Shown in pieces: positions 195 through 29,100 of a stretch of DNA of 64,000 bases. Numbering within the stretch: the stretch's first letter is position 1; the number at the start of each line of letters is the position of its first letter. The position numbers were made by a program, and so were the translations under genes. The DNA comes from a virus. The notes under the pieces are model-generated. The model worked only from the letters and a program-made list of their open reading frames with translations, did no database searches and was not told the DNA's origin. The stretch covers positions 26,773 through 90,772 of the IMG/VR virus record IMGVR_UViG_3300010157_000047; one strand, 5' to 3'.

Positions 195-423
195 ATATAG
201 AATAGATATGTATAGAAAGTTAGCATCTTCACCTATTGAAACACCAGTATTTTTTAGGTCTCAATTTGTTACTATCTCCAAAGATAAAGAATTATCAGAT
301 ATTGTTAGTTTATTGGGCAACTATCAGCCGTCAAGACTGCAAGATGATGAATATGATTATGTATCGTCAGATGGTGCATTATCAATAAAGGAATATAATG
401 AAGATTTAAAAAAATACGTATGA
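181..423 (+). CDS. Hypothetical protein (80 aa)
   Basis: ORF overlaps both neighbours in operon fashion; no recognisable motif. Confidence 0.6.
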   Translation: MKMIKYRIDMYRKLASSPIETPVFFRSQFVTISKDKELSDIVSLLGNYQPSRLQDDEYDYVSSDGALSIKEYNEDLKKYV

Positions 424-1208
424 GTTATCCTGTAAAATTAAGAACTAAAAATCATAGTGCTAATGGATTAAAAAATCTATTAAAAACTATACGTACTACC
501 AAGCCATTTGTTGTAAGGCTTGGTAGTAGAACTCCTATTGAAATCATATTCCCTAAATCACATGCAAAGGCAATAGAAATCAATACTGTTCAATCAATTG
601 AAAATAGTAGGAATAAATTGCTTATGAAAGATTGCTTTAAGGAATTAGAAGTATCACAATCTAATTGGTGGAAAGGACCGCATATTGACATAGAATTTTC
701 AGAACCTAGATTTCCATTATTAGTGAAAAAGATATATGGATTTAAAGGGAAAGGGATGGTAAAGCTGGACAATGAAGAGCAATATCATGAATATGCTAAT
801 TCAACATATATAAATGATTGCTATTTTGAAGAATATAAAAACTTTGGTAAAGAATATAGAATTCATGCAACACAAGATGAAGTATTTTTATCTTGGAGAA
901 AAATGAGGAAACTTGAAGCTGAAGAAAAATGGTTTTTTAATTCTACAAATTGTAATTGGATATCTGAAGATAATGAGCTATTTGAAAAACCTGAAATATG
1001 GGATCTAATGTGCCAACATGCAATTAAGGCAATTAAATCTACTGGATTAAATATTGGTGCAGTAGATGTTAGATGCAAAATGAATCCTAAAAATGAATCG
1101 GACTTTATTGTATGTGAAGTAAATAGTGCACCAGAACTTGGTGAAGTAGGAACAATTAAATATTTTGAAATATTAATTAAAATAATTAAAAATCATGATT
1201 CCAATTAG
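420..1208 (+). CDS. ATP-grasp ligase (RimK/YheCD-like, phiEco32-type)
   Basis: VVRLGS, NKLLMK, FPLLVKK..G.KGKGM, KEYRIH, GLNIGAVDV and CEVNSAPELG (ExN metal motif). Confidence 0.9.
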   Translation: MSYPVKLRTKNHSANGLKNLLKTIRTTKPFVVRLGSRTPIEIIFPKSHAKAIEINTVQSIENSRNKLLMKDCFKELEVSQSNWWKGPHIDIEFSEPRFPLLVKKIYGFKGKGMVKLDNEEQYHEYANSTYINDCYFEEYKNFGKEYRIHATQDEVFLSWRKMRKLEAEEKWFFNSTNCNWISEDNELFEKPEIWDLMCQHAIKAIKSTGLNIGAVDVRCKMNPKNESDFIVCEVNSAPELGEVGTIKYFEILIKIIKNHDSN

Positions 1209-2367
1209 TTATACATTAAATAAATATTTGAATGAAAATGAAACCATTAAAAATTATTTTAATGTAACTGGATGTACTGAATATCCAGCTAAAGATTTCA
1301 GAGTATTAGAATATGTATCATTTCCCTTTTATATACTTAATAATGAAACATATAAAGAATTAGCAAGAGATGTTAAATTATTACTAGGACATACATATAC
1401 TAAAAAGAAATATATGATTGAATGCTTAAAAATGATTGACAGCATTTTTAAAGACATGAAAGATAAAGATGGCAATCAATTTTTTAGACTATATAAATTC
1501 GAGGATTTAAAAAATAATATAAAAAAAATAACAAAAAATAACTGTAATTTAGTATTAACTGATAATAAAATTAATAGTCAGAATATATTAGGAAGGACAA
1601 TTAATGAAACATCATTTAAGGATAATGATCCAGTTGGAATATTAACAGATTGCTACAATATTAGAAAATATTTTGATTGTAGAATTAAAATTGATAATTC
1701 ACCAGAAAAACCAGGTGATTGCAGAAAAGTTCAATTTGCACATACTGCATTAAGGCTTATATATTGCAATAATTATAATATTATGCTGTATGCATTAACA
1801 TTATATAAAAAATATAAAATTTCAGCTTATTATGCATTATGGTTGGCTTATAATCTTAAATATTCATGTAATTCAGATAATTCTAATTATGGTGATTTAT
1901 TTAAATTTAATGATTCATTTTCAACAGAGAAAATATTTGGAAAAAGATTTGAAGATAAAAAATTAATATATTCCGTACAATCTCATTTTGATTCTGAAAA
2001 ATCTGAATTTTATGAATATACAAAAAATAAATTTAAAAATAAAATATTTGAATCTAATAAATCAATAACTGAATTTATAACTGGACATAATAATTTTTCT
2101 CATGAATTAATTATTAAATCATTATCTAAATTAGATCTTTCAGATAAAATAAAAGATCTATATAATAAAGGCAAAGAATCAATTGAAGATATTGATGAAA
2201 AAGTTAATTTTAAATTTAATGATCAATTATTTAATTCAACAATTGTTAATGTTAAATACAAAGGTATAATCATAAGAGGCGAAAAATTAAATAGAATAAT
2301 TTTTAAAGATGAAAATGAAATAGTGTTATCAGTATTACAAAATAGTAAATTTATACAAATTATTTAA
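1195..2367 (+). CDS. Hypothetical protein (390 aa) inside the ligase cluster
   Basis: Long ORF translationally coupled to its neighbours; no motif recognised. Confidence 0.7.
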   Translation: MIPISYTLNKYLNENETIKNYFNVTGCTEYPAKDFRVLEYVSFPFYILNNETYKELARDVKLLLGHTYTKKKYMIECLKMIDSIFKDMKDKDGNQFFRLYKFEDLKNNIKKITKNNCNLVLTDNKINSQNILGRTINETSFKDNDPVGILTDCYNIRKYFDCRIKIDNSPEKPGDCRKVQFAHTALRLIYCNNYNIMLYALTLYKKYKISAYYALWLAYNLKYSCNSDNSNYGDLFKFNDSFSTEKIFGKRFEDKKLIYSVQSHFDSEKSEFYEYTKNKFKNKIFESNKSITEFITGHNNFSHELIIKSLSKLDLSDKIKDLYNKGKESIEDIDEKVNFKFNDQLFNSTIVNVKYKGIIIRGEKLNRIIFKDENEIVLSVLQNSKFIQII

Positions 2368-2368
2368 T

Positions 2369-3136
2369 ATGGAATTTTCAATAGGTAGTGACCCAGAAGC
2401 ATTTATTATCAATAATAATAGTGGGCTAGTAGTATCATCTAAAAGATTTACAGATGGTACAAAATCAAAACCAGAAGATTTAGGCAATGGTTATGCATTA
2501 TTAAATGATAATATTTTAATAGAAGGAAATGTTCCTCCTGCTAATAATAAGTATCAATTCTTAGATAATATGGCACATTTATGGAAAACTATGAATCATA
2601 GAGCTAGCGAGAGAAATGCTCATATTCATAATTCTGATTGTGAAGAAATATCTAATGCTTTAATGGAAACAGAAGAAGCAAAAGAATTCGGCTGTTCATC
2701 ATTTAATGATGCATGGAATGATTCATTTGAAATTGATACTCCTCAATTAAATGGCAATAATAGACCAGCTGGATGCCATATTCATATAGGATTAGACAAT
2801 GCCTCAGAAAGCCTTAAAATGGCCATAGTTAGATCATTTGATATGTTTGTAACACTACCAGCATTAGAGATAACTGGTATGAATTACAGAACATCAAATC
2901 TATACGGATTATTAGGTGCTTGCAGGATTAAATCTTATGGTGTTGAATGTAGGTCTTTAGGTGGCACATTTTTTAATCCTCAATATTTTGGATGGATATA
3001 TGACAATGTAAAAATAGCTGTTAATTATGCAGCTGAAAATGAAGAATTACTGTTAAATATGCCAAATATTACATCTTACATTGGAGAAGAAAGAATAAAA
3101 ATTGTAAAGAATTATAAAAAATTATTCATTAATTAA
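2369..3136 (+). CDS. Phage phiEco32-like COOH-NH2 ligase type 2
   Basis: IGSDPE, DNILIEGN, FGC, RPAGCHIHIG and YGLLGACRIKSYGVECRSL motifs of the glutamine-synthetase-like COOH-NH2 ligase fold. Confidence 0.9.
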   Translation: MEFSIGSDPEAFIINNNSGLVVSSKRFTDGTKSKPEDLGNGYALLNDNILIEGNVPPANNKYQFLDNMAHLWKTMNHRASERNAHIHNSDCEEISNALMETEEAKEFGCSSFNDAWNDSFEIDTPQLNGNNRPAGCHIHIGLDNASESLKMAIVRSFDMFVTLPALEITGMNYRTSNLYGLLGACRIKSYGVECRSLGGTFFNPQYFGWIYDNVKIAVNYAAENEELLLNMPNITSYIGEERIKIVKNYKKLFIN

Positions 3137-3145
3137 TAGTTATAT

Positions 3146-5002
3146 ATGTGTGGACTATGGGGCTTTAGCTCTACAAATAAAAAAAACTGGGATCCATTGA
3201 ATCGCTTTAAATTTGAATTATTAGGCATTCAAATGGATTCCAGAGGGGGAGATGGTTGCGGTATAGCATATGATGGATTTGTGTTAAAGTCTGAAGAAAT
3301 AAAAAAGTTTGATGATTTATTCAGAATCAATGATTTGATGCCAATTTCATTGAAATATCCAGCAATAATCGGCCATGATAGAAAAGCTTCAGTAGGTGAA
3401 AAATCATATGAAAATACTCAACCAATATTTTTCACTGAAAAAGGAAATGCCGAGGATGAAATATCATCAATATTAGCACACAATGGAACGCTATATAATC
3501 ATCAAGAATTATATGATAAGCATAAAGCAGAAATACATTATGGATTAGATACATCTAAAATGTCTGATAGTCAAATGCTTGCACTATTAATTGAAAAAGT
3601 TGGTTGGTCAATACTTAATGAATATATTGGTACAGCTGCAATATTATATATGAATGCCAATGAAAATGGTGTAATATATGCTTATCATGGTAAGTCTCCC
3701 ACAAGAAAAGATTTTGCAGAGACAGAAGAAAGACCTTTATATTATTGCATAGATCAAGATAATATATGGTTTTGCAGTACTAAAACAGCATTAAGAGTAA
3801 TTGTTAAAGATGAGAAATTAATAGAGGAATTACCATTTAATAAAGTATTTAAAATTATTGGCAATTCTATGACTGAAGTTTTTGATGTCAATAGAAGTAA
3901 TTCATTTCAAATTGAAACTATTGTTAAAGAATATCCTAAATCATTTCCAACAAGAAGTGAATATTCTATTCCAGGATATAAATATGGATATAATTATGGA
4001 TACAATTATGGATATGGATATGATGATGATATATATGATGAAACATTATCTACTAGAAATAAATCAAATAACAATACAAATCAATTAAAATTAGCATATA
4101 ATACAGTTGAAACTCCATTATTTAATGATGTTAAACCAACTTATTATCCAGTAAATACTTGTTATTGGGATAGGGGATTATATTATAGTGATGCAAAATT
4201 GCTGCATGGAATGGTGGCAATGAATAAATCTGGCGTAATTCAACATAATAAAGATAGAATAAAAAGTGAAAATTATTGTTTTTATTTCTGGAATGGAAAT
4301 TTAATAAATAAAAGAACTGATTTTATTAAAGCAACATATTATTATGAAGACTATGTAAATACTATTTCACCAAAGCAAATGTTGATTGATATCTCACAAT
4401 ATTTTGCATTTCCATATAAAATACCGTCAGAAATTGGTGGAGACGATAATATATTGTATGAAGGAGGATCTAAAGTAACAAATTCTAAATTTAATGGGCA
4501 TATTCATCCATTATTTACCACTAAAAAGTTAACATTTAGAGATGGAACATTAATAGATTTATTACTTAATAATTCATATGAAAAATTAAATAATGTTATT
4601 AATTTATCTGATACATGGCCAGAAGAATTTATTGAATGGGAAAAATCGCATTTAATTGAAATGAAAGATATTCAAAATGAAATGATTAAATCCAGTAAGA
4701 TAAATAAAGAAAGCTATGAATGTCCAGAATGCATGGGTAATGGAGGCGGAATAGAAGATGTATGCGAAATGTGTAATGGAGACGGAATAGTTGCTAATGA
4801 TATTATTATTGATGCTATGAAATATATTGTAGGAATGCAAGATGATGTAACAATACTTGCGGAAAGTGCAAAAATTGCAATTGCAATAAATAACATAGCA
4901 GATATGGGAATATCTATCCTGGAAGAGCCTAATGCGTCCGTATTAGGAAGTGAAATGTTATCTAAATTATATACAATTAAAGAATGTTTAGCAAATGATT
5001 GA
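3146..5002 (+). CDS. Class II (Ntn) glutamine amidotransferase with a C-terminal extension and CxxCxGxG zinc finger
   Basis: N-terminal MCGLWG, RGGDGCG, IGHDRKAS, AHNGTL, SDSQ, ERPLY; CPECMGNG...CEMCNGDG near the C-terminus. Confidence 0.9.
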   Translation: MCGLWGFSSTNKKNWDPLNRFKFELLGIQMDSRGGDGCGIAYDGFVLKSEEIKKFDDLFRINDLMPISLKYPAIIGHDRKASVGEKSYENTQPIFFTEKGNAEDEISSILAHNGTLYNHQELYDKHKAEIHYGLDTSKMSDSQMLALLIEKVGWSILNEYIGTAAILYMNANENGVIYAYHGKSPTRKDFAETEERPLYYCIDQDNIWFCSTKTALRVIVKDEKLIEELPFNKVFKIIGNSMTEVFDVNRSNSFQIETIVKEYPKSFPTRSEYSIPGYKYGYNYGYNYGYGYDDDIYDETLSTRNKSNNNTNQLKLAYNTVETPLFNDVKPTYYPVNTCYWDRGLYYSDAKLLHGMVAMNKSGVIQHNKDRIKSENYCFYFWNGNLINKRTDFIKATYYYEDYVNTISPKQMLIDISQYFAFPYKIPSEIGGDDNILYEGGSKVTNSKFNGHIHPLFTTKKLTFRDGTLIDLLLNNSYEKLNNVINLSDTWPEEFIEWEKSHLIEMKDIQNEMIKSSKINKESYECPECMGNGGGIEDVCEMCNGDGIVANDIIIDAMKYIVGMQDDVTILAESAKIAIAINNIADMGISILEEPNASVLGSEMLSKLYTIKECLAND

Positions 5003-6560
5003 TTCAACAATAACAACATATGATGGTCATGAAGAGCATAAAGATCATTGTGTATTTATAAGAGGTAAATATTACCATAAAGAAAGGGATTGCACTTATT
5101 ATGAAGGAACATATTATTCGCCATTTAGTAGATATTTAGTATTAGATAATGAAACAAATAAAAAAGTTCATTCATTAAATGCTAAATTAAATTTTGGTGT
5201 AATAAATTATATAAATGGCAAATATATACTTGGATATTATTCTAAGAATATAATAAAGAATTGCAATTTATATCTTCCTACAAAAATAAATACTGAAGAA
5301 TTTAATAATATTATTTCAGAAATATCTTCCAGTAATCAAAATAGCATAGTAAGTGATAATATTCATCAGAATATTTTTATTGACATAATGGGTAATTCAT
5401 TTGTTACAACTACAAGTACTGATGATATTATAGAATATATTAATTGTGAAAGATTGGTAAAATGTATGGACATTAATAAATTCATCAATAATGAAACTAT
5501 CTTATCAATGAATTGCGATTCCTTATGCAATATTAATGATATAAAATCTTACAATAAATTTTACATTGATTTTAATAAAATATCTGCCATTACTCCATAT
5601 GATTTTAATTTATCATATAATTCAGAAACTATGATGCAGACATTTCAATCATCATTTGAAAATAATAAATTCAATATGAGTGAAAATTCTAAATCATTAA
5701 GTAAATATATTAAAGATTTTACATTTGGTGTTGAATATGAAACTTGGGATGGTAGAATTCCAACATATCTATGTGCAACTAATGGACTCATACCTGTCAG
5801 AGATGGTAGTTTACGTCATGATGGAATATGTGGATTTGAATATGCATCAGTAATAATGAATGGTTTAACTGGGTTAAACGCTATAAAATCTCAATGTGAA
5901 GCATTAAATAAATATACAATATTCAATGAAAAATGCTCAATGCATATACATGTTGGCAATATAGAACGAACAAAAGATAATTTAATAAAATTATACCAAG
6001 CATTTTACAGTATTCAAGATTCAATATATTCAATGTTTCCATCTTGTTTAAAACATACTAGTGAATATAAGCTTAAAGATTATTGTTCTCCTCTTCCATT
6101 AATGCCAGATGATGAAAATGCAATTGTAAAATGGCTTAGCGATGAAACAGAGTTATTTAAGCATTTTGGAAGAAATCATCCAAGAGATATAAATTCTCAA
6201 TCCAAATGGCATATTAATTCAAGATATTCAATATGTAATTTAAACAATTTCTATTATACTGATAGGGGTACTGTTGAGCTTAGAATATCAACCCCTACGT
6301 TTAATCATAATAAAGTTGTTGCATTATTATTATTGGTATGTTTAATAGTAGATGAAGCTATAAATAATAAATTTTACAGTACTGTTGAAGAATTAATAAA
6401 TGCTACTATGGATGGTAATGAAAAAGATTGGATGATAAATTACATTAAGTTTAGGCAAGATAATCTTTCATTATTTAAAAAAGATGAAAATGGAAATGTT
6501 AAATATTTTGAAACAATGAAAAATGATAATGAAACAGGAAACGACGGAGACATTGCTTAA
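4995..6560 (+). CDS. Putative amidoligase (Amidoligase_2-like)
   Basis: TFGVEYET, RDGSL, GFEYAS, CSMHIHVG, RYSICN and GTVELR motifs. Confidence 0.88.
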   Translation: MIDSTITTYDGHEEHKDHCVFIRGKYYHKERDCTYYEGTYYSPFSRYLVLDNETNKKVHSLNAKLNFGVINYINGKYILGYYSKNIIKNCNLYLPTKINTEEFNNIISEISSSNQNSIVSDNIHQNIFIDIMGNSFVTTTSTDDIIEYINCERLVKCMDINKFINNETILSMNCDSLCNINDIKSYNKFYIDFNKISAITPYDFNLSYNSETMMQTFQSSFENNKFNMSENSKSLSKYIKDFTFGVEYETWDGRIPTYLCATNGLIPVRDGSLRHDGICGFEYASVIMNGLTGLNAIKSQCEALNKYTIFNEKCSMHIHVGNIERTKDNLIKLYQAFYSIQDSIYSMFPSCLKHTSEYKLKDYCSPLPLMPDDENAIVKWLSDETELFKHFGRNHPRDINSQSKWHINSRYSICNLNNFYYTDRGTVELRISTPTFNHNKVVALLLLVCLIVDEAINNKFYSTVEELINATMDGNEKDWMINYIKFRQDNLSLFKKDENGNVKYFETMKNDNETGNDGDIA

Positions 6561-7257
6561 AAAGCTATATATAAGTCAGGATTTAATAATGGATTTGACA
6601 TCATTTGGTTATCAGGGACATTTAATATCAGATTTCTATTTAGAAGAAGATGTTAGAATAGCCATTTCCGCATTAAATACAATTCATATGCATGAGGAAA
6701 TGTATCCTTCATTACCATTTTTGCCATTTTCATTTTGCGATATAAATGATGTAAAATGTGTTATTATTGGTGGAATGCCCAATATGTCTAATATTGAAAA
6801 ATGGACTGGGAGTGCATATTCTTATGATATTAAGAATCATAAAACTCTGTTTCATAATAAAGTAATAAAAGATCTTAATAAAGGAATTCCATATTTTAAG
6901 GATGTAGAATCAGATAATTATAGATTGCAAGATTCTGGCATTCTTATGCTTCATGAAACAATGTCTGTTAGCAGAAATAATTTTATGTCATGTGCTACAT
7001 TTTGGACGCCAATTATTTTTAGATTATTAAATTATATATCTATTAATGATGCAAGCGTTCCAATTGTATTTACAACAAAATCTGCTAAAGAAACATACAG
7101 ACTTGCTGTATTACTTTCTGAAAATGTATTTTCATTAAATTTAAAAGATGCAGATAGCATATCTGAAAATCCATTTATATTTAACGCAATACAGGTTGCA
7201 ATAAATAATAAACGAGGTAAAGATAAAGTTGATTTATTAAAATTAATAAGTATATGA
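6523..7257 (+). CDS. Uracil-DNA glycosylase-like protein with degenerate catalytic motifs
   Basis: DVKCVIIGGMPN (cf. family-1 UDG VKVVILGQDPY), GSAYS, SGILMLHETMSV (cf. QGVLLLNTVLTV), FWTP and NPFIFN; no HPSP motif. Confidence 0.65.
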   Translation: MIMKQETTETLLKKLYISQDLIMDLTSFGYQGHLISDFYLEEDVRIAISALNTIHMHEEMYPSLPFLPFSFCDINDVKCVIIGGMPNMSNIEKWTGSAYSYDIKNHKTLFHNKVIKDLNKGIPYFKDVESDNYRLQDSGILMLHETMSVSRNNFMSCATFWTPIIFRLLNYISINDASVPIVFTTKSAKETYRLAVLLSENVFSLNLKDADSISENPFIFNAIQVAINNKRGKDKVDLLKLISI

Positions 7258-8304: not shown

Positions 8305-9075
8305 ATGAATGTAGATTCAATTATAGAACTTTATCCGCATATTGAAAAATTAATAGGTGGAAGATATCCATTTGCACTAGGAGGATATCCAGCATTAGTT
8401 AAACAAGGAATATTAAAAGAATCTAGAGAGACAAAAGATGTAGATTTATGCGTATTTACAAATAGAGACTATCAAAGTGGAGGAGCAATAAGCTATTTTA
8501 ATCATAACTTACATATCAACTTGGAAAATTGGAATAATTATTTTAAAAAAACATTAGAAGATAATGTAAATTATGAAATACAAATTGAAGACAATAGTTT
8601 TTCATTAAATTCAGAAAAATCAGTTAAAGATCAAAAAGATAAATTATTATTATTATTAGGAATAGATAAAATGGCAACTATATCATTAATTAGAAACGTT
8701 AATAGCCTGAAAAATAAGATAGTATATAATGCATCTGAAATGACTAGTAAATATTTATTGAAAACTGCAATATTTTTTAATAAATTTTCTGAAATAAATG
8801 ACATTAATAAAATACAGTTTGATTTATTTTTCCTTAATTTTACAAAAATTAATAATTCAACAGTTATAATTGACGGAATAAGATATGTAGATTATTATGT
8901 TATATTAAAAGCTAAGTATGAATATTGTTTAAATAAATTAACTAATGATAAATCATTTGAAAAACATATAAATGATTTAAATGAATCTTTTAATATTGTT
9001 CATATTGATGGAGTTAATTTTCCTAAAAACGTAGATTTTTTAATTAAAAAGAGAGAAAATGAGAAAAATAAATGA
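8305..9075 (+). CDS. Nucleotidyltransferase-superfamily protein
   Basis: FALGGYPALVKQG...RETKDVDL (GG..AL / DxD signature) and C-terminal KHINDL. Confidence 0.65.
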   Translation: MNVDSIIELYPHIEKLIGGRYPFALGGYPALVKQGILKESRETKDVDLCVFTNRDYQSGGAISYFNHNLHINLENWNNYFKKTLEDNVNYEIQIEDNSFSLNSEKSVKDQKDKLLLLLGIDKMATISLIRNVNSLKNKIVYNASEMTSKYLLKTAIFFNKFSEINDINKIQFDLFFLNFTKINNSTVIIDGIRYVDYYVILKAKYEYCLNKLTNDKSFEKHINDLNESFNIVHIDGVNFPKNVDFLIKKRENEKNK

Positions 9076-9256: not shown

Positions 9257-9701
9257 ATCATTATCTTATATATTACCGCTAATTAAAGGATGGTCTGCGA
9301 AAGCAGATTGTCCTATTAATTGCTATTCAAACACAATAGTCCCAAATTCACTAACAGTTTCATACTATAAAAATTCAGAATATCATGAAGAAGGAATAAT
9401 AATAAGTGAAAATGATGAAATTATAAATATATCATATTTTATAATGGATGAATTTATACATGATTATAGAATTATATTAAAAGGTAATTATAGTAGAATT
9501 AGCGAAGAATGCAAACAGCTTATACTTGGAAGAACTCCCTCTATAACTGAATTTAGCAAAATAGAATCAGTATTTTATAAAACTAAAGGAAGAAAAAAGT
9601 ATTTAGAAAATAAATTAGGAATATTAAATATTGATGAATATACTAATGAATATGAAAGTAAATTTAATGAAAGTGAAATATTTAATTTAGAAGAAGCATG
9701 A
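9246..9701 (+). CDS. Conserved crAss-like hypothetical protein
   Basis: SYILPLI...DYRIILKGNYSRISEECKQLIL pattern, as recalled from the replication regions of crAss-like phages. Confidence 0.6.
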   Translation: MKNKSLSYILPLIKGWSAKADCPINCYSNTIVPNSLTVSYYKNSEYHEEGIIISENDEIINISYFIMDEFIHDYRIILKGNYSRISEECKQLILGRTPSITEFSKIESVFYKTKGRKKYLENKLGILNIDEYTNEYESKFNESEIFNLEEA

Positions 9702-9991
9702 TAGATAAAGCATTAAGATATAATAATGGAAAATTAGATTGGACATTATTAGACTTTAAATCTCTTGAGCCATTAGTAAAAGTTATGACTTACGGAGAAA
9801 AAAAGTATAATAGATTTAATTGGCAGAAACCATGTGATGATCCACGTCAGCATTTACAATCAGCAATGAGACATTTAGTAGCATTAATTAATAGCGAGGA
9901 ATTTGATGATGAATCTACAGAACGTCATACAGGCCATGTAATGGCAAATATGATGATGTATAACTTTCATACAAGGCATATAAATGAATGA
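9698..9991 (+). CDS. dATP/dGTP diphosphohydrolase domain protein (DUF5664-like)
   Basis: LRYNNGKLDWTLL, VMTYGEKKYNRFNW, SAMRHL, DDES...H..H...N. Confidence 0.85.
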   Translation: MIDKALRYNNGKLDWTLLDFKSLEPLVKVMTYGEKKYNRFNWQKPCDDPRQHLQSAMRHLVALINSEEFDDESTERHTGHVMANMMMYNFHTRHINE

Positions 9992-11467: not shown

Positions 11468-11674
11468 ATGAATAGATATATAACTTGCATAATTAAAAAT
11501 GAATCAAAGCAAACAAAGATATATGAAAGTGAATCATATAAAGATTTGTTAAAGTTAATAAAAAGTGATAATATTGGGGATTATAAACTGAAATATGCAC
11601 GAAAAATGAATCTAGATGGAAATCATCATTTTGGTATTAATATTTCAGCAAAAGCATATCAAAATCTTCTATAA
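11468..11674 (+). CDS. Hypothetical protein (68 aa)
   Basis: Coupled ORF. Confidence 0.55.
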   Translation: MNRYITCIIKNESKQTKIYESESYKDLLKLIKSDNIGDYKLKYARKMNLDGNHHFGINISAKAYQNLL

Positions 11675-12129
11675 TGAATAAAAAAGTCAGAAATACTAAA
11701 TCTTGGAATTATGATGGAGTAAAATTTCAATCAGGACTAGAGTTGTTCTGTTATAAGGAATTACAAAATAATAAAATTCCATTTATTTATCAACCAGAAA
11801 AACAAGTACTTCTTAAATCATTCAAAATTAATTTCAAATGCTATGAAAGTGTGGGTAAAATATATCGTGATGAAAATAAGAAAATTACTAATTCAACTAA
11901 GCGATTTGATGTGGTTGATTCAATAAGGGAGATAGCATATACTCCTGACTTTATATGTCCTAATAATACGTGGGTAATTGAAACTAAGGGGTTCGCAAAT
12001 GATGCGTTCCCCTTACGTTGGAAAATGTTCAAGAAGAAATTAGTAGAAATGAATTTTACTGGATTACTATTGAAGCCAGAAAATCAAAAAGAAATATCAC
12101 AATGTATAGAAATAATTAAAAATCAATGA
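11674..12129 (+). CDS. PD-(D/E)XK endonuclease (DUF1064/endonuclease I-like, possible Holliday junction resolvase)
   Basis: YDGVKFQSGLE...YTPDF...WVIETKG...FPLRWKMFK. Confidence 0.8.
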   Translation: MNKKVRNTKSWNYDGVKFQSGLELFCYKELQNNKIPFIYQPEKQVLLKSFKINFKCYESVGKIYRDENKKITNSTKRFDVVDSIREIAYTPDFICPNNTWVIETKGFANDAFPLRWKMFKKKLVEMNFTGLLLKPENQKEISQCIEIIKNQ

Positions 12130-12902
12130 ATAATGAAATAATTAAAATATTTTATAATAGAGCTAAATTAATACAAAATTTAGATAAAATAGTTCTTAGC
12201 AGCAAAAAGAATAATCAAAATGATGGTCAACTTAGTTTATTTCAAGAAACAAATGTTAATGTTGAAATATCCCTAGATGAGCCTGAAGATTTCAATGCAC
12301 TTAAAATGGCTGATGCTGAAAGAAATGTATTAGGTTTTGATATGTTATATTCTAGATTTGATGAATATTTCTCAATAAAATGTAAATATGCAAATGGAAA
12401 TATGGCATTATTATTAGATGATGAAATGGATCATAATATTACATTGTTAGCAGAAATAAAGCTAATAGAATATAAAACAAGTCAATATGGCAATAAATAT
12501 GCTAAATTAGTATTTTCCGATAATACTGGAGAAGATAAATTATATTTATTTGGTAAGTTATATGAGAAAATGATTGCTAAATGTTTTTTAGATAAAATAT
12601 ATTTATTAACATTAAAAAAGTCTGAAAAAGATTCTAGTAAAATGGATATAGTTAATTTTATGCTAGCAAATGATATTGATGATGCATGCATATCATCCAA
12701 AAACTTATATGTAACTACGACATCAAATCACCTCCCACAATTAAGGATGTATTTAAAATGCTTTATGATGGGAGATGATCAAGATGTAAATATTAAATTA
12801 ACAGATTTAAATATTACAATGCCATCAGTATGTAAATGTTCTGTTAATAATGAGAATTTATTAGAAATGAGTAAAAATGGATTTGAAATACAATTAAGAT
12901 AA
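12126..12902 (+). CDS. Stand-alone DNA polymerase III alpha (DnaE) C-terminal region: clamp-binding motif, OB-fold and C-terminal domain
   Basis: NRAKLIQNLD...GQLSLF...AERNVLGFDM..RFDEY, then ITLLAEI...SQYGNKYAKLVFSDNTGEDKLYLF. This parallels DnaE HRAALM...GQADMF...ERETLGLY...[24 protein letters not shown]. No PHP or palm domain is present. Confidence 0.8.
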   Translation: MNNEIIKIFYNRAKLIQNLDKIVLSSKKNNQNDGQLSLFQETNVNVEISLDEPEDFNALKMADAERNVLGFDMLYSRFDEYFSIKCKYANGNMALLLDDEMDHNITLLAEIKLIEYKTSQYGNKYAKLVFSDNTGEDKLYLFGKLYEKMIAKCFLDKIYLLTLKKSEKDSSKMDIVNFMLANDIDDACISSKNLYVTTTSNHLPQLRMYLKCFMMGDDQDVNIKLTDLNITMPSVCKCSVNNENLLEMSKNGFEIQLR

Positions 12903-12907
12903 TAAAA

Positions 12908-13339
12908 ATGTATAATATAGAAATAATTAAAAAAGCAGGTGAAATGAGTTCTTTTAGTAATTCAGACATTAAATATTTAATATCAATGCTAGATGGGGCA
13001 AAGCAAATACTGTATCCAGAAGGACTAGAAGAAGATGAATCATTTGAAGTAGCTAAATACAAGCCAAATTCTTTATTAGATTTTTTCGAAGAATTTTGTG
13101 AGGAAGTTAAAATTGAACCATACAGAATGAAATCGTTAGTTAGGAATAGAATATTAACTGATCATAGATGCGTATTTGTTGCATTAGCAACTAAATTATT
13201 TAAAAATTCAACTCAAAATGATATAGCTAATTTAATATCAAGAGATAGGAGTATGATTCCAGCTTATATGAAAGAGGTTAAATCATGTCATGAAAAGCGA
13301 CAATTATATAAAAAAATAAAAAGATCAATGAATTTATAA
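12908..13339 (+). CDS. DnaA domain IV-like (TrpR-like HTH) DNA-binding protein
   Basis: FCEEVKIEPYRMKSLVRNRILTDHRCVFVALATKLFKNSTQNDIANLISRDRSMI matches the DnaA C-terminal pattern S..R......R.......  S...IG....RDHST. Confidence 0.7.
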   Translation: MYNIEIIKKAGEMSSFSNSDIKYLISMLDGAKQILYPEGLEEDESFEVAKYKPNSLLDFFEEFCEEVKIEPYRMKSLVRNRILTDHRCVFVALATKLFKNSTQNDIANLISRDRSMIPAYMKEVKSCHEKRQLYKKIKRSMNL

Positions 13340-13349
13340 TCATAATAAC

Positions 13350-13718
13350 ATGAAAAATTTAACAAGTATTTTACTGGCCGCATTGATTATGTTAAGTTGT
13401 ACTGATTCAATGCAATATATATTAAAGTCAGATACAACAACAAAAATTCTTTTTGTAGGATCAAAATCAGTAGCTTTAAAAGGTACAATGTCTGGCAAGA
13501 TTAGCTGTGTAAGAGGATTTTTAATATCAAGATACAACATTCCAACATTTAGAGATAAAGAAATTCAAATAGAATGGTGTAATGATGGAATTGATGACTT
13601 TTCTAAACTTATAAATCTTGAACATGGAATAACTTATTTTGCAGTTTCATTTTGTTACTACCCAAGACATGCTGATGATGTTTCATATGGAAATGCAGTA
13701 TATTTTAAAACTAAATAA
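13350..13718 (+). CDS. Lipoprotein with a Bacteroidota FN3-like domain
   Basis: Lipobox LIMLSC; C-terminal NLEHGITYFAVSF...VSYGNAVYFKT resembles L.PGTTYYVRAYA...YG....F.T. Confidence 0.6.
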   Translation: MKNLTSILLAALIMLSCTDSMQYILKSDTTTKILFVGSKSVALKGTMSGKISCVRGFLISRYNIPTFRDKEIQIEWCNDGIDDFSKLINLEHGITYFAVSFCYYPRHADDVSYGNAVYFKTK

Positions 13719-18103: not shown

Positions 18104-21100
18104 TTAACTACATTTGGTTTTAAATATATTATGATTTAATGCATATCTAAAGGATTCTCTTTCTATCTGACTTGCTTTGCCCAAGAAATCTCTTACGGTT
18201 CCAGATAATCCCTGACTATTATTTTCTTCTATTGATTGATATTTTGATGAAATATCTTTTTTTATTATATCTTTCTTTTTAGAATCTCTAGTATCCATTA
18301 ATTCACTAGTAAGTAACATATTTTGAAGCATTGCAGCCTCTAAGATACTTTTTGAATTAACACTATCTCCATTAAAAAATTTAACTATCGAATCAAAAAA
18401 TGATGAAAATTTAGAAAATAATGTTTCTAATAAAGATTTATTTTTTTTAACTTTTAATTCTTTATATGTTTCATCTTTAAGATATACATTATTCATTAAT
18501 TCTTGAATATGCTGTCTTGATGATAGTTCAGATATAAATTCTTCAGGACTAATAAACATATATAATGATCTTTTAAGTTCGGCTTTAGCGTCTTCATCAG
18601 AACCATATAAATCCGCAGCTATCTCAGATATGGAATTAGTTGATTTTCCACTTTTCAATTTATATTTTATCTTACCTTTTTTTACAAAAGTACCATAAAT
18701 TAATTGATTACCTTCATATTCAAGAATTGATCCATTAACAGGATTTACAATTGGCAATTCAGAAACAGCATCTGTTGCATCTGAAAATATCTTATCTACA
18801 CTATTAGCTATTTCGGCAAATTGCTTATCACCACTTTTCCCTAAATTATAAGATTCAACCATTATAGCATGATGAATTTCATGCAATAAAGTTTCTTTAG
18901 CAAAATCAATAGACCCTGTCTGATCCGTCATTTTACTAAGCATTTTAGTATAAATTATTATTTGCTTTTTACCCTTAGTTATATTAAATTCTGCTATATC
19001 TCCAGATTCTTTAATTTCATCGCTATGAATCACATTAATATCACCTATTTTATCTGATAATTTATCAATAATGGCAGACATCCAATCTGAATATGTAGTG
19101 CCAATTTGCCTTATAATTGGCACTAAAGAACGGATATTAGATTGTTCTGAAAGCATCTTTAAAAAGAATGTTTTTGCTATTGTAAAATCTTCAGAAAAAG
19201 AATCTATATCAGTTGTTCCACCAATATAATATTCTTTTGATATGTTGTCAGATACATAATCTGAAAAAAATGAATTATCAAATAATTTTCCAGATTGCTT
19301 TAATTTATTTTCTGCCATTATCTTAGCAGAACCCCTGAGTATTGAATGATCAGATTTTGTATAATATGCAACATATGATCCACCATCTTTTGCATATCCA
19401 CTATACACATAAATATTATTATGTTTTGATTTCTCTGAACTTTTAATAAAAAGAGGTATGTTTGCTAATGAAAATTTAGGACCAACAGATACAATATATT
19501 TACCAATTTTATCATTAAAATTAGATGGCATTGATTTAAATTTCACATCTTGATTTGATACAAAGGAATTTATTTCATGTTGATATTGGGGATTATTTCG
19601 ATAAAATAAATTAATAAATTCATTTACTGATGCATCTGAATTATTTTCATTTACTTTTTTAGCTAATTTATTGTAAAATTCAATATCATTTAATATATCA
19701 GTAGGTATTATTTTTATAAAACCAGATCTTGTCTTATTGCCATTAGTTAATAATTCATAAAATATAATACCTTGTGCAATTTTTCTAATTTTTTCATCTT
19801 GACTCTTAGCCATATCATAAAATCCATCAATTGCAGCTTCCATATCTGCATTATTTATCATGTCTGCATTAAATGATATATGAGTATTAGATTTATTTAT
19901 TGATATAGATCTAATAAATTTATTATTTTTATATTTATTATTTTTTTGCAATAATCGAACATCTCTAGCTAAATATTTACCAAGCTGATTTATATTTGCC
20001 TTAACACCATATTCCTCTGTTACTACTTTTGTGAATATATAAGTTTTATATCCATCTATTGCAGATGATACAAAATTTGAATAATCATTTGAATTCATTT
20101 TATTGTATGCAGACAATTTACTTATAATTGATTTTATTGCAGGATCATCATATCCCATTACGCTATCAATTTCATTAACAACGCCTTTTGCTGTTGCTAA
20201 ATTATTTCCAGTAGTATTTAATCTTCCATTTAATGTTTGAGTATATTTTTGACTATTCGCTAATCCTAAATTGTTATTTCCATGATTTATAGATTCCAAT
20301 AATTTAGAATTTGCAATAGAAGATGTTTTAAATTCCCTGTCAAATGAAGTATTATTATTAAGTGCAAATATTTTTTTTGACATTTTCGATAATGGCATAA
20401 ATATATTATCAATTATATCAATTTGCTTTGTCAAATATTCTAATTTCTCATCATATAATGCATCTACGTTTCCAAGTAATTTTTGTCCTAAATTATATAT
20501 TTCAAATAATTCAGATTCATCATAATTTAATGATTTCATCTTATCAGAAATACTTTGCGCATCAGAAAGTTTTACCCCCAATTTATCAGCAAGTTTCTGT
20601 TTTGCACGTAATACTGATTGACCTATTTCTATATTTTTAATTTCACTAATTATTCCTTTAGAATTTGATTCTATTTTAGAAGACATTTTAACTATCTCCT
20701 GATTAAGGATAGCTGGAACATATTCTAATGATAATGAATTATTTTGATCATCAGATAATATCATTAATGTTGCAGCAATATTGAATGTTAAATCATTTAG
20801 TCCATTAGGAATTAAGTTTCCATTTTTTGCATTATCAATTGATTCAGATAATAATATTACAATATTACGCAAAGAAGTTCTTTCTTCATCGCCTATTGTT
20901 GATGTTGAATATGGATTAATTAAATGCAATTCTAAACCATTTGATCCTCCTGGAGCCCTTAGTTTTTTAATTGATTTTTTAGGGTCAAATTTTATATCTT
21001 TTCTATCTGCAAGAATAACTGATGACATTAATTTTGCATAAATATCTATTCCGCTATTTGCAGATTGCTGAAGTCTGTACTCTTCATTTTGTCGTGCTAT

Positions 21101-24100
21101 AGAGTACCAAGGAGACTTTGGATTTATTGAGAAATACTTATTACCAGTATTCTTTAAATCAGGTGCATCTAGAGCTTCTAATGCACTTTGAGCAACTTCT
21201 GGATGGCTAAGTACTGATTCAAAAATTTGAATATAATCATTTTGCAATGCTTTTTCAACTACTGTATTAAAATCTGGTTTATTTTCATCTTCAAAATTAT
21301 CATTAATGAAAGAATTTACATTATCATTATTTATAATAATATCACCATCTTCAGTGTATGAGATAAGATTTGATGGAGTACCTACCAATCTATTATCTTT
21401 TGTAAGAAATGAATTTCTCCAATACTGATACAATTTATCAATATCAAAGTCGGCACCTGTTTGAGTTACAATTTCTTGAGGAACAAAACATACAGTGCCC
21501 ATTAATTTAGGGGAAAATCCAACTATTTGAAATAGCACCTGAGATTGATGAAGCTGATTTGGAAGCCTCATACCAATTATTTTAAGTAATTCTGGATCTA
21601 TTTTATTAACATCCTCAATGCTAAGTTTTCCACCCATTGATACAAAATCAAAAGGTACAATTATTTCAGCTGTTGCAGTTGTGACTAATTCTCCATTTTC
21701 CATTGTTTTAACAGTTGTATATCCAAGAGGTTTGCTAGCATCCCTTCCATTTAACCATACAACGTCATTTCCTGCCTTTGAAGACATAACCTTAACTTTG
21801 CCTCCACCAACCAATGAAAATTGAGGATTTGCCCTTCCAGGACGATCTAATTTAATTGCATCTCCATTAGCTGAAAATAAAAATTGTTCAATCAACTTTC
21901 TTCCATGTGACCATAGGAGAGGCAATCCACTTTTATTTACAGATACTAACGAATGGGCCTCATTATTAGATACACCAGAATCAGCCTTGATTGACCTATC
22001 TACAATGCTATCAATATCATATTTTCCATCAATTTTAAGTCTAGCATCAATATTAGCTTTAGCCCTTTTAGATAATTCAATATTTATGGCATGCTTTATA
22101 TTGTCAAGATTTTCTCCGCTTATTGCATTGGATCCATTGAAATCTTTAAAATTAAAAACCTTATCATATAAGCCTCCAAGTATTGATTTATCAGCTTGCA
22201 CTACATTGGTAATATATTCATCTCCAAAGTGAGTTGGAGTTTCTTGTTGATAACCAAAGCTTGACCACGGCAATTCTTCTGAGCTTTGAGATATTTTTTC
22301 ATATATAGATTGAACAGTTGATCCAGTGACAAAATTAGATTGTTTACCATATATTTTAGCAGGAGTTTGTAATCCCTGCTTAACTGCTGATGCGTGAACT
22401 ATTCTACTAATATGAATGTCTTTAGATGGATCTTCATTGTAGCCTACTTCCATTGCAGCACGAAGATTATCTAAGTCTTCATTTATTGATTTTGTAAATT
22501 GAGCTAATAATGGAATTTCAGCTGATTTTATAAATACTTTGCTAACAACAGACTCTGCACCTATAGATTTAACTAAATGTGCAACTTGTCTAGGCTTCCC
22601 TGCTCCAATAAATAATTTACCAATATATTTGTCTGCAACTGTTCCATCTGCTTGATATTGTCTTCTCATTAAAATAAAATCTTTTTCATTAATCCTTCCA
22701 GATCTAAATAAAGATTCTAATTTATTGTAAAATGAAACATATTCCATTCCATCAGTTCCTTTTCCAGTATATTGTTTTATTTGTTTTTGGAATTTTTCTG
22801 GCAATGAAGACAAATATTTTTCACCATCAGTCAACGCATCTTCAATAAATGAAACTTTATAATTTTGCTTTCCAGTAATTACTAATCCATTTTTTAATTT
22901 TATTTCATATGTAGAAACAACATCTGTTGCAGGAGATATATCAGCAGATAATCGTTTTTGATATTCATTCATAAACGAATCTATTGCCAAATTAATAGAT
23001 AGCCCATTAACATCAGCTACATTCATTTCTTTCAAAACTTTTTTGACAGCTGATACTTTGCTCTCAAGAGACTGCTGTGATGTTGCAGGATCAGATGAGG
23101 CTATAATCCCCATATTACCCATAACAGAAAAAGTATTCATATTAGATTCAATAGACAATACAGATAAAACTCTTAGCATTTCATCATTAAAAGCGGTATT
23201 GCCAGATAATGTTTTTAATGCCATAGATATTTTTCTAGACTGCTTTGTATTTGCTCCTGAATTTTCCAATAGCTGCAATGTACGAAATGGATTAAGTAGC
23301 TTTATATCATTTTCAGGAATATTTAATATTTTAGATAAATACGAATAATCTTCATCCGAAATTAATTCTGATTTTTTAACTAATTGATTTGCTGCTTCTC
23401 CTGATGCATCATCTAATTGAGACTCATCTATTTGAGATTCATCAAATTCAATTTCATCTTCATTTACAGTAGCATTTGTTTTAGATTTTTTTGTTATGAA
23501 AGGAGCATATCCTTTAGAGACTCCCCATTTATAATTTATTAAATTAGTAAACATTTTTCCTTTTCCTGCAACAACTAATCCATTTGCCTTCCAAGAAGAA
23601 ATATCTGTGCTTATTGATTCTATAAAATTTTTATATAATGCTTCTTTAAATAAAATTTCATTTGTTGAATTAGATAAATCTAATTTCTTAAGACCTTTTT
23701 CACTTATTGTTCCATCTGCATTTCTATCTATCAATGAATTTAAAGATGCCATTGAATAAAAAAACTGAGAATTATAAATATAATTTTTACCAAATATTCT
23801 TTCTAACTCTTTTGCTTTATTTTTATATGTTGTAGTGTTAGAATTATCTTTATTTGTTACAGCAAAAATCATTCTGTCAATTTCTGCAGCAATAACACTC
23901 ATTGAATCATGCATTAAATCACTTTGCATAATCCTAGCTTTAGCTCTAGGTGATATTATTAAATTACCATTATCATACGATATAAAATCTGTAAGTGCAA
24001 TTTTATTTCTTTCAGCTTCTATTGTATATGTGACTTCAAATTCTTTTCTTGGAACTTTAAATGATGGAGATTTTTTCTTGTCAGATTTAGTAGTATCTAA

Positions 24101-26110: not shown

Positions 26111-29100
26111 TTATTTAATACAATTTAATAAATTATCTTCACCTTCACTCTGTTCAGTACTATCTATATTATCATCAATACTTATTGATTTTGAAAATCC
26201 ATAATCAGTAACAGATGATTTAACATTATCTGAAAATAAATCATTATCTGCATCTTCAGTATAACTAGAGTCAGATGATGTGTTAATGCTTCCTGCAAGA
26301 AAATCGGGTATTTGCATAATAATGTTGTCTTCATCGATAATAGTAGGAGCCTGAGTTTCCCCAGGCTCACTAGCTTTTAGCACTTGCCTTTTTTCTTTGT
26401 TGGCATTGCTGGTTGGAACGGTTTTTTTGTTACTTGCTTTTTCATTGCTTTTTGATTTTAATCGTGAAACACTAGAACCTGTTGTTAAGATTATATTAGA
26501 CGTATGTATGGCTCTTTCTAAACTTGAAGTTATTATTAATGGAGTAGCGCCTATTTGCTTGCCAAGATCGGCAGCCTGAGATTCACCAAGTTTTGTTAAT
26601 TTAGTATCATCTGATCTAAAATTATTCTTTTTATTATCTTCTGTTTCTCCATGCCTTGCAATATTTAAAATACCATTATCACTATTTATTTTAAATGATG
26701 CACCAGTATTGCTATCTAATTTTATATATTCTTTTCTAAAATTTTCATCAAATTTAGATGGTCTACCCATTGAATCCCATAGCCTAATAAGTCCAAATGC
26801 AGTATTATGAGTTACAATAGTAGAATTATTAGGAGCAGATTTAATTGCTTTAATTAATGATGATTTAACTCTATGTGCAAATGTATTAAATGATTCACCT
26901 CCATGTATTGCATCATTAGGATGATTAAGAATCATGTCGTTAACTTCATCAATTATATCTTGATTTTGATCAGTACCTACTAAATCTCCTAAATCAAATG
27001 TTTTAAGATTATCATCAGGAGTAATATTATTTGATATTGGAGAAATAGTTTCTTTAGATCCAATTTGATCATCAACACTAAACTCTAATACTGGTTGTAA
27101 AAAATATACATTTTTCTCAGATTCACCTGATCCAATTTTTCCAGCAGCTTTAAAATTAATTGATCTACTTTTCATATAAAAATCACTAATAGATTTTGCT
27201 AATTCAGAATGACTTAAATCGTCATTTATAATTACTACGCTATTAGGTACGCTTTTATGATAATCATTCTTGAGATGCTCACGACTAAAATTGCTTTTCA
27301 TTCCAGCAAAATCTGATACTAATAAATTTGCTAGCTCAGTGCTAATTTTTTCATTTTCATTTATAATTTTACGCTTACCATTACTCGACCATGTTAAATA
27401 AAACTTACCATTATTTTTTGTTGAATACCCTAAATTAGCCTGAGCCAATTTATGATCACTGATCCAAACAAATTGAGATAAATACTCTCTAAGACCAGCT
27501 CGTCGTATCCTTCTCATGCCATCATCGGTAGATTCATTCATTGGAGCATTTTTTCTATCATGCCATCTGGCACCAAGATCATATAATATATCTTTAGTAT
27601 TCTGAGATTGAAATAATGATATTGCATTTAATATTGAAGATGCATTTTGTACTCCAACACCATTATCAATAGCCACCTCTGGAGATAATAATCCATTTGC
27701 AGTTGGAACCATAACAACTGGAACACCATTTTCTAATTCAGTTCTAATAGAATCAGGTACTTGATTTCCATCTATACCAACTGCTTCTCCTCCTTCAATA
27801 GTTGCCCATAATCTGCTTGGATCTCCAGTGTATTTAGCTACATCTAATGCTAAATCAGGAGCATTATCCATAATCATTCCAGCAGTTTCAGTTGCCATGA
27901 CTGTACCAGCTCCTACAGCAGTTATTTTAGATTGTATATTAAATGTTTTATTTCCTTTATTGAATTGCTTTTTAAATTCTTCCCTTAATTGCTTTATCTC
28001 TTCAACTTTAGCTCTAATAGTTTTTTCGTCTTCAACTTCTGCTATATGGGTTCTAGATCCAGAATCATCCTTTTCATTAAGCCACATATGCTCTGGAAGA
28101 TATCCAATTAAATCTTTTTTGCCATTAGATAATATATATATAGCAATTGGCATTTCAAATTTATTTGCATCACCATATTGCTTATTGTCCTTAGCGGCTT
28201 CTTCTGCAGATATAGTTTTTGTTTTCATTGTTCCATCTGCATTCATAATTGGTCTACCGCTGCTATTTCTTGCTATCGATGGAATTGGACCATCGGCAAT
28301 CTCCATAACTATATCTGCATGTTCAGTAAATTCTATATCTGAATTTTTTAGAAACTGATTATTAACGCCTTCTGGCTTGTTTTTCATTACCCATAAATCA
28401 CCAACCTTAACAAATGAATATTTCAATGCAAGGTAATTAACGGCAATAGCATTTATTCTTTTTTTACCAGATGACAGCGTTTTATCTTGAATATCTTTTT
28501 TTATAATAGTGGCTTTAGATCTTCTATCATTAAGATTAGATCTAGCATTTGATTTTTCCTCAACTGAATTAGATATAACTTCTTGGGCTTTTTCAGATGC
28601 AGTATATACGCCACGTTTTCTATATTCAGATTCAATATCTACATTTTCGCCATTATCAATTCTATCTAATACATCTTGAACCGTATTAATGTCTACTTTA
28701 AAATTGCCAATAGTTAGAGTTACGGGACTCTTAGCATCAGCAAATTTATTATCTATATTAGATAACTTTCCAGTTCCAAAATCTTTTTCTGAAGATAAAC
28801 CTTCTCTATAGGATTCTATTGAATTATTTAATCTAACTGCTCTTTGCGATATATCAAATAAAGCATCATCATCTGAAGTAGCTTTCTTAATATAATTTAA
28901 ATTTAATTTACTTCCAGTAGGATTAGGCTCTAATGAAAAATATCTATCATCAGATTTCTTAGCTCCTTCTTCTTTGAATAAATGGATAGATGGATTTTCA
29001 TAGTCAAAATTATCCCCAGTAATATCTTTAAATGATTTATCAGATATTTGAGTTTGAGATCTTCCTCTCTCAACTATATTGCCATCTTCATCTTCAGTTT

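Follow-up and report, generated by a model that had tools for sequence, protein, structure and literature searches.

Bacillus phage SPP1 supplies its own helicase, loader, origin binder and single-stranded DNA-binding protein and takes the polymerases, the clamp, tau-delta-delta' and the primase from its host; no alpha-like component is listed among the 11 proteins it requires (PMC3561973). Phage proteins that engage the host clamp include Gp168 of phage Twort, which occupies the DNA channel of the clamp (PMC8565349), and MuC of phage Mu, a transcription factor that acts through near-consensus clamp motifs (PMC12867686). In group 2.2 jumbo phages, Iyer et al. (2021) described a phage-encoded, stand-alone fragment of the DnaE family, namely a split alpha subunit of DNA polymerase III (Pol III) that consists of a nucleoside triphosphate-binding and a Mg/template-binding catalytic half; PolB is present in these phages in addition, whereas all remaining domains of Pol III are missing (PMC7824862). 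Here we report on a gene of the converse type. Open reading frame (ORF) A lies in 64,000 nucleotides of viral DNA (positions 26,773 to 90,772 of the IMG/VR virus record IMGVR_UViG_3300010157_000047; this whole stretch is referred to as the window) and encodes 258 amino acids (aa) that are homologous to the C-terminal region of Pol III alpha (DnaE), i.e., to the non-catalytic tail only, in a genome that lacks a polymerase gene.

ORF A is homologous over its whole length to the C-terminus of DnaE1-type alpha subunits (E. coli alpha ~890–1160, Taq alpha ~945–1220 and Bacteroidota DnaE), yet differs from them in being stand-alone, phage-encoded and free of catalytic domains, and in a clamp motif that is nearer to the consensus. 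It differs as well from Gp168, to which it is unrelated in sequence (PMC8565349), and from MuC, neither of which is polymerase-derived or has an OB fold or a DnaE C-terminal domain. With SPP1, the present genome shares a division of labor in which the phage supplies the helicase and initiation or priming factors and the host supplies polymerase, clamp and loader; a difference may be that a dedicated mimic of the alpha tail here makes the link to the host holoenzyme. The literature searched yielded no mention of such a DnaE-derived gene and no published description of a stand-alone tail.

An earlier note, prepared from the sequence alone, had read ORF A as a DnaE C-terminus with an ideal clamp motif, an E..VLG motif, an OB fold and a C-terminal domain, followed by a second gene (ORF B) resembling domain IV of DnaA. 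Reading of the sequence confirmed the positions of both ORFs and of the QLSLF pentapeptide, which is encoded by the codons CAA CTT AGT TTA TTT (Table 1). ORF A starts 34 residues before this motif, with no extra N-terminal sequence and no intein-like extension. As a single sequence it matched the NCBIfam Pol III alpha model PRK05673 (E = 1.3e-13; residues 10–214 on profile positions 886–1098 of 1146); Pfam and PHROG scans gave no match, a phmmer search of the PDB gave only a non-significant match to Taq alpha (E = 1.9), and a shallow profile of 12 sequences found nothing in the PDB. A profile built from 44 sequences matched E. coli alpha at residues 894–1092 (E = 8.7e-15) and Taq alpha at 943–1109 (3e-13). 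Since some weak members of this set turned out to be contig-end fragments of real DnaEs, the profile was rebuilt with only the 23 stand-alone members at E < 1e-10. It still recovered E. coli alpha (894–1056, E = 5e-7) and Taq alpha (1e-5), with about 30 bits each, and its alignment placed QLSLF on the internal clamp motif and E65 and G70 on the segments ERETLG and EKEALG of the E. coli and the Taq subunit, respectively. The alignment also brought the OB loop of ORF A onto the G-N in the corresponding loop of E. coli alpha. An hhalign comparison with a Bacteroidales DnaE returned a probability of 97% (E = 8e-11) over residues 988–1212 of 1247. Among 201 Bacteroidota genomes, 154 contained matches to the stand-alone profile, the best of which reached 91.5 bits (E = 7e-26) over profile positions 19–251; all matches listed fell inside long DnaE frames, nearly all of them 1146–1629 aa and a few 423–766 aa in length. 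These scores exceeded those on the E. coli and Taq subunits, which would fit an origin of the tail by capture from a DnaE of the Bacteroidota.

Structure prediction agreed with this assignment. AlphaFold2 gave a poor model from the shallow alignment (mean predicted local distance difference test score, pLDDT, of 63), which was resolved by the deeper alignment (pLDDT 85, predicted template modeling score 0.74). From the N-terminus, the model shows two helices, the QLSLF loop, further helices, an OB barrel and an alpha/beta C-terminal domain. In a Foldseek search with this model the seven best matches were all Pol III alpha subunits (best E = 1.9e-8). VIA-align superposed residues 10–258 on Taq alpha 948–1199 (222 residues, Z 10.2, root-mean-square deviation 8.1) and also matched M. 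tuberculosis DnaE1 at 919–1099 (Z 11.6), with generic OB folds at Z 9–10. The C-terminal domain is included in the alignments, which extend up to residue 1199 of Taq alpha and, for Bacteroidota DnaE, up to profile position 251. Taken together, NCBIfam, the profiles, hhalign, Foldseek and VIA-align bear out the earlier reading of this gene: ORF A is genuinely homologous to Pol III alpha, but to its C-terminal quarter only. The arrangement is that of the DnaE C-terminal module, in which an internal clamp motif is followed by E.E.LG at the homologous position, and the modeled OB fold comes after the clamp motif. The consensus for beta-clamp binding is QL[S/D]LF. The loop of residues 34–41, which carries this pentapeptide between two helices, was modeled with pLDDT < 50, so that a conserved consensus motif would lie in a predicted flexible segment, as in beta-clamp-binding proteins.

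Conservation within the family points to the same element. The 12 close homologues of ORF A are 253–263 aa long and share an invariant QLSLF. An exhaustive phmmer search of 1.8 billion representatives returned 54 clusters, nearly all of them stand-alone proteins of 220–307 aa; the stand-alone family comprises about 40 clusters and is known from metagenomes only. The motif Q-[LMF]-[SDNT]-[LMI]-[FY] occurs in 41 out of 41 stand-alone members, in which it forms the most conserved stretch (3.06 bits per column versus 1.5–2.3 elsewhere). Five Bacteroidota DnaEs carry QVSLF, QNSLF or AHSLF at this site; judged by sequence, the phage motif is nearer to the consensus than that of the cellular DnaEs sampled. 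R12 is invariant in the family, as are E65 and G70 in 44 sequences. Second to the clamp motif overall is the loop SQYGNKYAK, the best-conserved part of the OB domain, with an invariant G122 and with N123, Y125 and K127 at 90% or more. In a subgroup of ~220–236 aa, which is devoid of the C-terminal domain, only 10–25 of the 64 reference C-terminal columns are filled. The predicted universal core of the family thus consists of the N-terminal helices, the clamp motif and the OB fold.

As longer relatives of ORF A, the search found only cellular DnaEs at about 25% identity. Five candidates for fused or short relatives (P0058, P0060, P0063, P0061 and P0066) were discarded, each having HHH_6 and/or OB domains of Pfam. 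Two of them, P0058 and P0066, fall into clusters with DnaEs of 1146–1154 aa and hence represent contig-end fragments of cellular DnaE; the domains of P0060, P0063 and P0061 indicate that these are probably DnaE fragments as well. None of the 50,697 deposited phage genomes was matched when five representatives of the family were used as tblastn queries, and IMG/VR scans with single distant family members found nothing. The family is visible so far only in metagenomes, where several homologues bear the automatic JGI label 'DNA polymerase III alpha subunit'.

Among the phages of the human gut the order Crassvirales predominates, and it is common elsewhere too. By its sequence, the phage encoding ORF A is assigned to this order, since a crAss-type capsid, portal and large terminase are present: PHROG matches for capsid, portal and TerL ranged from E = 1e-103 to 1e-131, and the major capsid protein is 54–59% identical to those of Steigviridae (cr111_1, cr108_1, cr106_1, Kehishuvirus and PhiCrAss001-like phages). 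The window makes up the final 64 kb of a viral record of 90,772 bp, which has an exact direct terminal repeat of 123 bp and all hallmark modules and was taken as a complete genome. A plus-strand module carries genes for RNase H, a DnaB-like helicase, an AAA_24 ATPase, a primase, a peptide-ligase cluster, a RecE-like exonuclease and a resolvase-like nuclease. No PF07733 core, PHP domain (PF02811), PolA or PolB was found when the complete sequence was searched in six frames, and likewise no DnaN and no clamp-loader match. When a full-length profile made from six DnaEs was run unfiltered against 596 open segments, only ORF A was recovered (E = 1.3e-18, profile positions 892–1128), the next segment scoring E = 0.33. 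In keeping with the earlier note, ORF A itself has no PHP, palm/thumb/fingers or HhH domain according to Pfam, six-frame and full-length profile searches. PHROG scans of seven of the eight unannotated module ORFs of 182–390 aa (all but the 254-aa ORF) revealed no polymerase family. The unannotated ORFs of the replication module are located at genome 19445–22874 and 24808–25533 and at window 1195–2367, 6523–7257 and 8305–9075. The sole in-frame DxDxD of the genome is the GADFDID of a 2666-aa virion RNA polymerase-like protein (window 18104–26104, minus strand; genome 44879–52882), where it fits the catalytic motif of crAss-type virion RNA polymerases.

Comparison with relatives revealed a reciprocal distribution of ORF A and PolA. 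The 97.7-kb relative G002, which has terminal repeats and is complete, and the partial genome G001 both carry ORF A (E about 1e-72), and in neither was a PolA, PolB, PHP or DnaE core found. Conversely, the three nearest deposited Crassvirales (cr111_1, cr108_1 and cr106_1) each possess PolA (E 1e-59 to 4e-44) and no gene of the ORF A family. Since PolA was found in these three genomes, the search method would have detected a crAss-type PolA. ORF A occupies the segment of the module that holds PolA in cr111_1, where PolA and nucleotide-metabolism genes lie between a PD-(D/E)XK exonuclease and the end of the module. It has been reported that some crAss-like phages are polymerase-less and that their DNA polymerases are swapped unusually often (Yutin et al., PMC7886860). 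The cr111_1 segment (MT774387.1 44505–56057, L013) also contains an anaerobic ribonucleotide reductase, ThyX, a dUTPase, a dNMP kinase and a thioredoxin, none of which turned up in six-frame and ORF scans of the present genome; the lineage appears to have shed the whole set of DNA-precursor and polymerase genes.

Because a polymerase-less phage must use a host polymerase, as SPP1 does, we favor the interpretation that ORF A acts as an adaptor by which the clamp and the holoenzyme of the host are held at the helicase-primase fork of the phage. We assign this interpretation, which is drawn from genomic logic, a probability of roughly 45%. ORF A would represent a stand-alone copy of the C-terminal, non-catalytic module from a Pol III alpha of the Bacteroidota type, kept by a lineage without a polymerase of its own. 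The motif strongly suggests that the protein docks on the host beta clamp via its consensus QLSLF; given that the phage has neither clamp nor loader, the conserved motif can only address the clamp of the host. The C-terminal domain of DnaE binds the tau subunit. From domain homology, and hence less firmly, ORF A would probably contact single-stranded DNA via its OB fold and the host clamp loader (tau) via its C-terminal domain, where this is kept. The Pol III holoenzyme of the host would thereby be linked to forks at which the DnaB-like helicase and the primase of the phage carry out unwinding and priming. As to the origin of such an arrangement, we tentatively propose that the lineage lost PolA and that a captured host DnaE tail became the essential connector of a chimeric replisome.

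Several points weigh against the adaptor. The reciprocity with PolA is based on three genomes per side only. CheckV estimated the completeness of the record at 60%, and that of G002 at 59%, despite the terminal repeats, although these low values probably reflect the distance from reference genomes. Several unannotated module ORFs of 240–390 aa could hide an unrecognizable polymerase, and divergent PolAs have been missed before (PMC11348598). A clamp motif of consensus strength fits an inhibitor equally well. Finally, owing to the subgroup that lacks the C-terminal domain, tau binding cannot be a universal core function of the family.

ORF A might instead act as a decoy that competes with Pol III alpha and other clients for the beta clamp and tau, so that the host replisome would be uncoupled, chromosome replication and repair shut down, and nucleotides and factors freed for the phage. 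Such an effect would be in line with a clamp motif that not only attains the consensus but surpasses the sampled cellular DnaEs, and with a protein that copies the alpha surfaces for the clamp and, by homology, for tau without any catalysis. Phage inhibitors of the clamp are documented in Twort Gp168 (PMC8565349), and in E. coli the overexpression of MuC is lethal, an effect mediated by its clamp motifs (PMC12867686). However, the two complete genomes with the gene have no polymerase, clamp or loader, and the phage would need the very machinery that a decoy would disable, which makes recruitment of the host replisome a more attractive reading than its outright shut-down. Moreover, the relatives best placed to do without the host replisome, namely those that encode PolA, lack the gene. 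We regard a decoy as less probable than the adaptor, but as its main rival. The notion that a divergent catalytic partner encoded elsewhere joins ORF A to form a Pol III-like enzyme of the phage appears highly improbable. Two-gene minimal Pol III alpha subunits do exist in the group 2.2 jumbo phages, the module contains unannotated ORFs of 339–390 aa, and NCBIfam weakly matched ORF A to the 449-position Pol III alpha model PRK07373, which presumably represents the C-terminal half of the intein-split DnaE of cyanobacteria. In that system, the DnaE-N gene is located elsewhere and the halves of a split intein mark the junction. Yet no DnaE N-terminal part was found in the genome and ORF A is free of any intein-like extension; six frames contain neither PF07733 nor PHP, the full-length DnaE profile recovers nothing besides ORF A, the only DxDxD belongs to the virion protein, and the longer relatives are cellular. 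The jumbo-phage form, for its part, consists of catalytic halves only, in phages without other Pol III domains (PMC7824862). As no complementary DnaE PHP/palm gene, which the earlier note had named as the finding that would turn ORF A into part of a split enzyme, occurs in the complete genome, ORF A is on sequence grounds not a split polymerase. The absence of a PolA, PolB or DnaE core likewise removes the basis of a further suggestion in that note, namely that host factors are adapted to a phage polymerase.

We also considered that ORF A could be a clamp-tethered accessory factor for another DNA transaction, for which clamps on phage DNA would provide a landing pad, e.g., recombination-dependent replication, branch resolution together with the neighboring nuclease, or coupling of late transcription to replication of the kind known from phages T4 and Mu. 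MuC uses the clamp for late transcription (PMC12867686). A role of this kind would suit a family core of helices, clamp motif and OB fold with an optional C-terminal domain, and it would suit the location of ORF A, which is the last gene of the replication/recombination module, just before a convergent block of virion genes, and is translationally coupled to the resolvase-like nuclease, its ATG overlapping the upstream stop codon (ATGA, 12126–12129). However, this nuclease is replaced in the related loci L003 and L004, making a specific partnership unlikely; nothing connects ORF A to the phage RNA polymerase, and the reciprocal pattern with PolA would be left unexplained, so that we deem an accessory role improbable. 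Least probable of all is the two-part module that had been put forward for ORF A and ORF B, in which titration of clamp and tau would be combined with occlusion of oriC. The genes lie on the same strand, with the ATG of ORF B 5 nt after the stop codon of ORF A, and each resembles a domain of a replication protein. The proposal did not hold, because ORF B is missing by tblastn from all six related loci that keep ORF A, and it is absent from G001 and G002 as well. ORF B is an orphan without a homologue among 5.8 billion protein clusters, its match to the DnaA C-terminal family stays below the Pfam cut-off, and DnaA boxes (TTATCCACA, up to 1 mismatch) are not enriched in the window (26 observed versus 27.4 expected).

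If the adaptor interpretation is correct, ORF A would exemplify a previously unknown viral route to a cellular replicase, by mimicry of the polymerase's own docking module, and would explain how polymerase-less Crassvirales replicate. Across the six genomes compared, the polymerase-tail mimic is present where the polymerase gene is absent, which makes ORF A a testable handle on the unexplained replication of polymerase-less crAss lineages. If it were a decoy, it would constitute a naturally optimized protein ligand of the beta clamp and possibly of tau, both of which are antibacterial targets. On either reading, the protein offers a compact natural tool for studying the functions of three elements of Pol III alpha (clamp motif, OB fold, C-terminal domain) separately from catalysis.

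Table 1 Coordinates in the window of ORF A, its parts and the adjacent genes
Feature	Position	Strand	Description
ORF A	12126–12902	+	258 aa; stand-alone, homologous to the C-terminal region of Pol III alpha (DnaE)
ORF A residues 1–31	12126–12218	+	two N-terminal helices (model), corresponding to the last DnaE helices before the clamp motif
QLSLF, residues 35–39	12228–12242	+	beta-clamp-binding motif by sequence; low-confidence, probably flexible loop
E65..G70	12318–12335	+	E.E.LG segment, which follows the clamp motif in DnaE
OB fold, residues 104–182	12435–12671	+	five-strand barrel in the model (strands 105–180)
C-terminal domain, residues 187–258	12684–12899	+	alpha/beta; at the position of the DnaE C-terminal (tau-binding) domain
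ORF B	12908–13339	+	143 aa; C-terminal half (residues ~60–136, bases 13085–13315) resembles the helix-turn-helix (HTH) of DnaA domain IV
Upstream gene	11674–12129	+	151 aa; DUF1064/Holliday-junction-resolvase-like nuclease

The likeness of ORF B to DnaA domain IV, which the earlier note had pointed out, is real but weak. Against Pfam Bac_DnaA_C (PF08299) it scored 19.8 bits (E = 8e-4), or 20.8 bits in the six-frame search, where the cut-off is 31.5 bits. TIGR00362 was matched at DnaA positions 352–429 of 437 with E = 0.037, and a sequence search of the PDB gave no DnaA match. The ESM Atlas model of ORF B (pLDDT 0.63) aligned to DnaA proteins with template modeling scores of 0.54–0.62, and its Atlas neighbors are viral stand-alone Bac_DnaA_C proteins. 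These share with ORF B a length of ~140 aa, the viral origin and a C-terminal HTH like that of DnaA domain IV; their Atlas clusters comprise 58–123 members, 46–74% of which are assigned to PF08299. ORF B differs from them in having no detectable sequence relative and in falling short of the Pfam threshold. In L005 and L007, a homologue of the gene that follows ORF B in the window (13350–13718) directly follows ORF A. By this comparison, ORF B appears to be a lineage-specific insertion, i.e., an unrelated accessory HTH gene and no conserved partner of ORF A.

The gene upstream of ORF A matched Pfam DUF1064 (E = 2e-5) and PHROG 190, 'Holliday junction resolvase' (E = 1.5e-9), and a homologue is present in L005 and L006. 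In L003 (4747–5214) and L004 (9550–10008) an unrelated protein of 152–155 aa takes its place upstream of ORF A, which may reflect non-orthologous replacement in situ. We dropped an assignment of this protein as a RusA-type resolvase, as it has no Pfam match. The replication genes are headed by a run of three ORFs of 363, 339 and 182 aa (genome 20222–22874, L002 222–2874, plus strand) that matched nothing in Pfam, PHROGs or NCBIfam; if there are unrecognized replication functions, they are most likely to be hidden here. The idea that the 363-aa ORF encodes a phage sliding clamp was not supported by any usable Atlas, Pfam, NCBIfam or six-frame DnaN match.

Further observations concern genes more distant from ORF A. 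A 97-aa ORF on the plus strand (window 9698–9991) gave a strong match to the N-terminal domain of dATP/dGTP diphosphohydrolase (PF18909, E = 1e-22) and is conserved in L003 and L004, with 60–73% identity; the family of this domain is associated with phages in which a canonical base is replaced. The peptide-ligase cluster, which is encoded on the plus strand immediately after the primase (window 420–6560 and genome 26553–26966), comprises a GGACT cyclotransferase, a RimK-like ATP-grasp protein, a phiEco32-type COOH-NH2 ligase, a class-II glutamine amidotransferase and an amidoligase. In the relative cr111_1, the major capsid gene (MT774387.1 10981–13396, L010) is annotated in two pieces around an inserted ORF, which the RefSeq copy of the record names a homing endonuclease.

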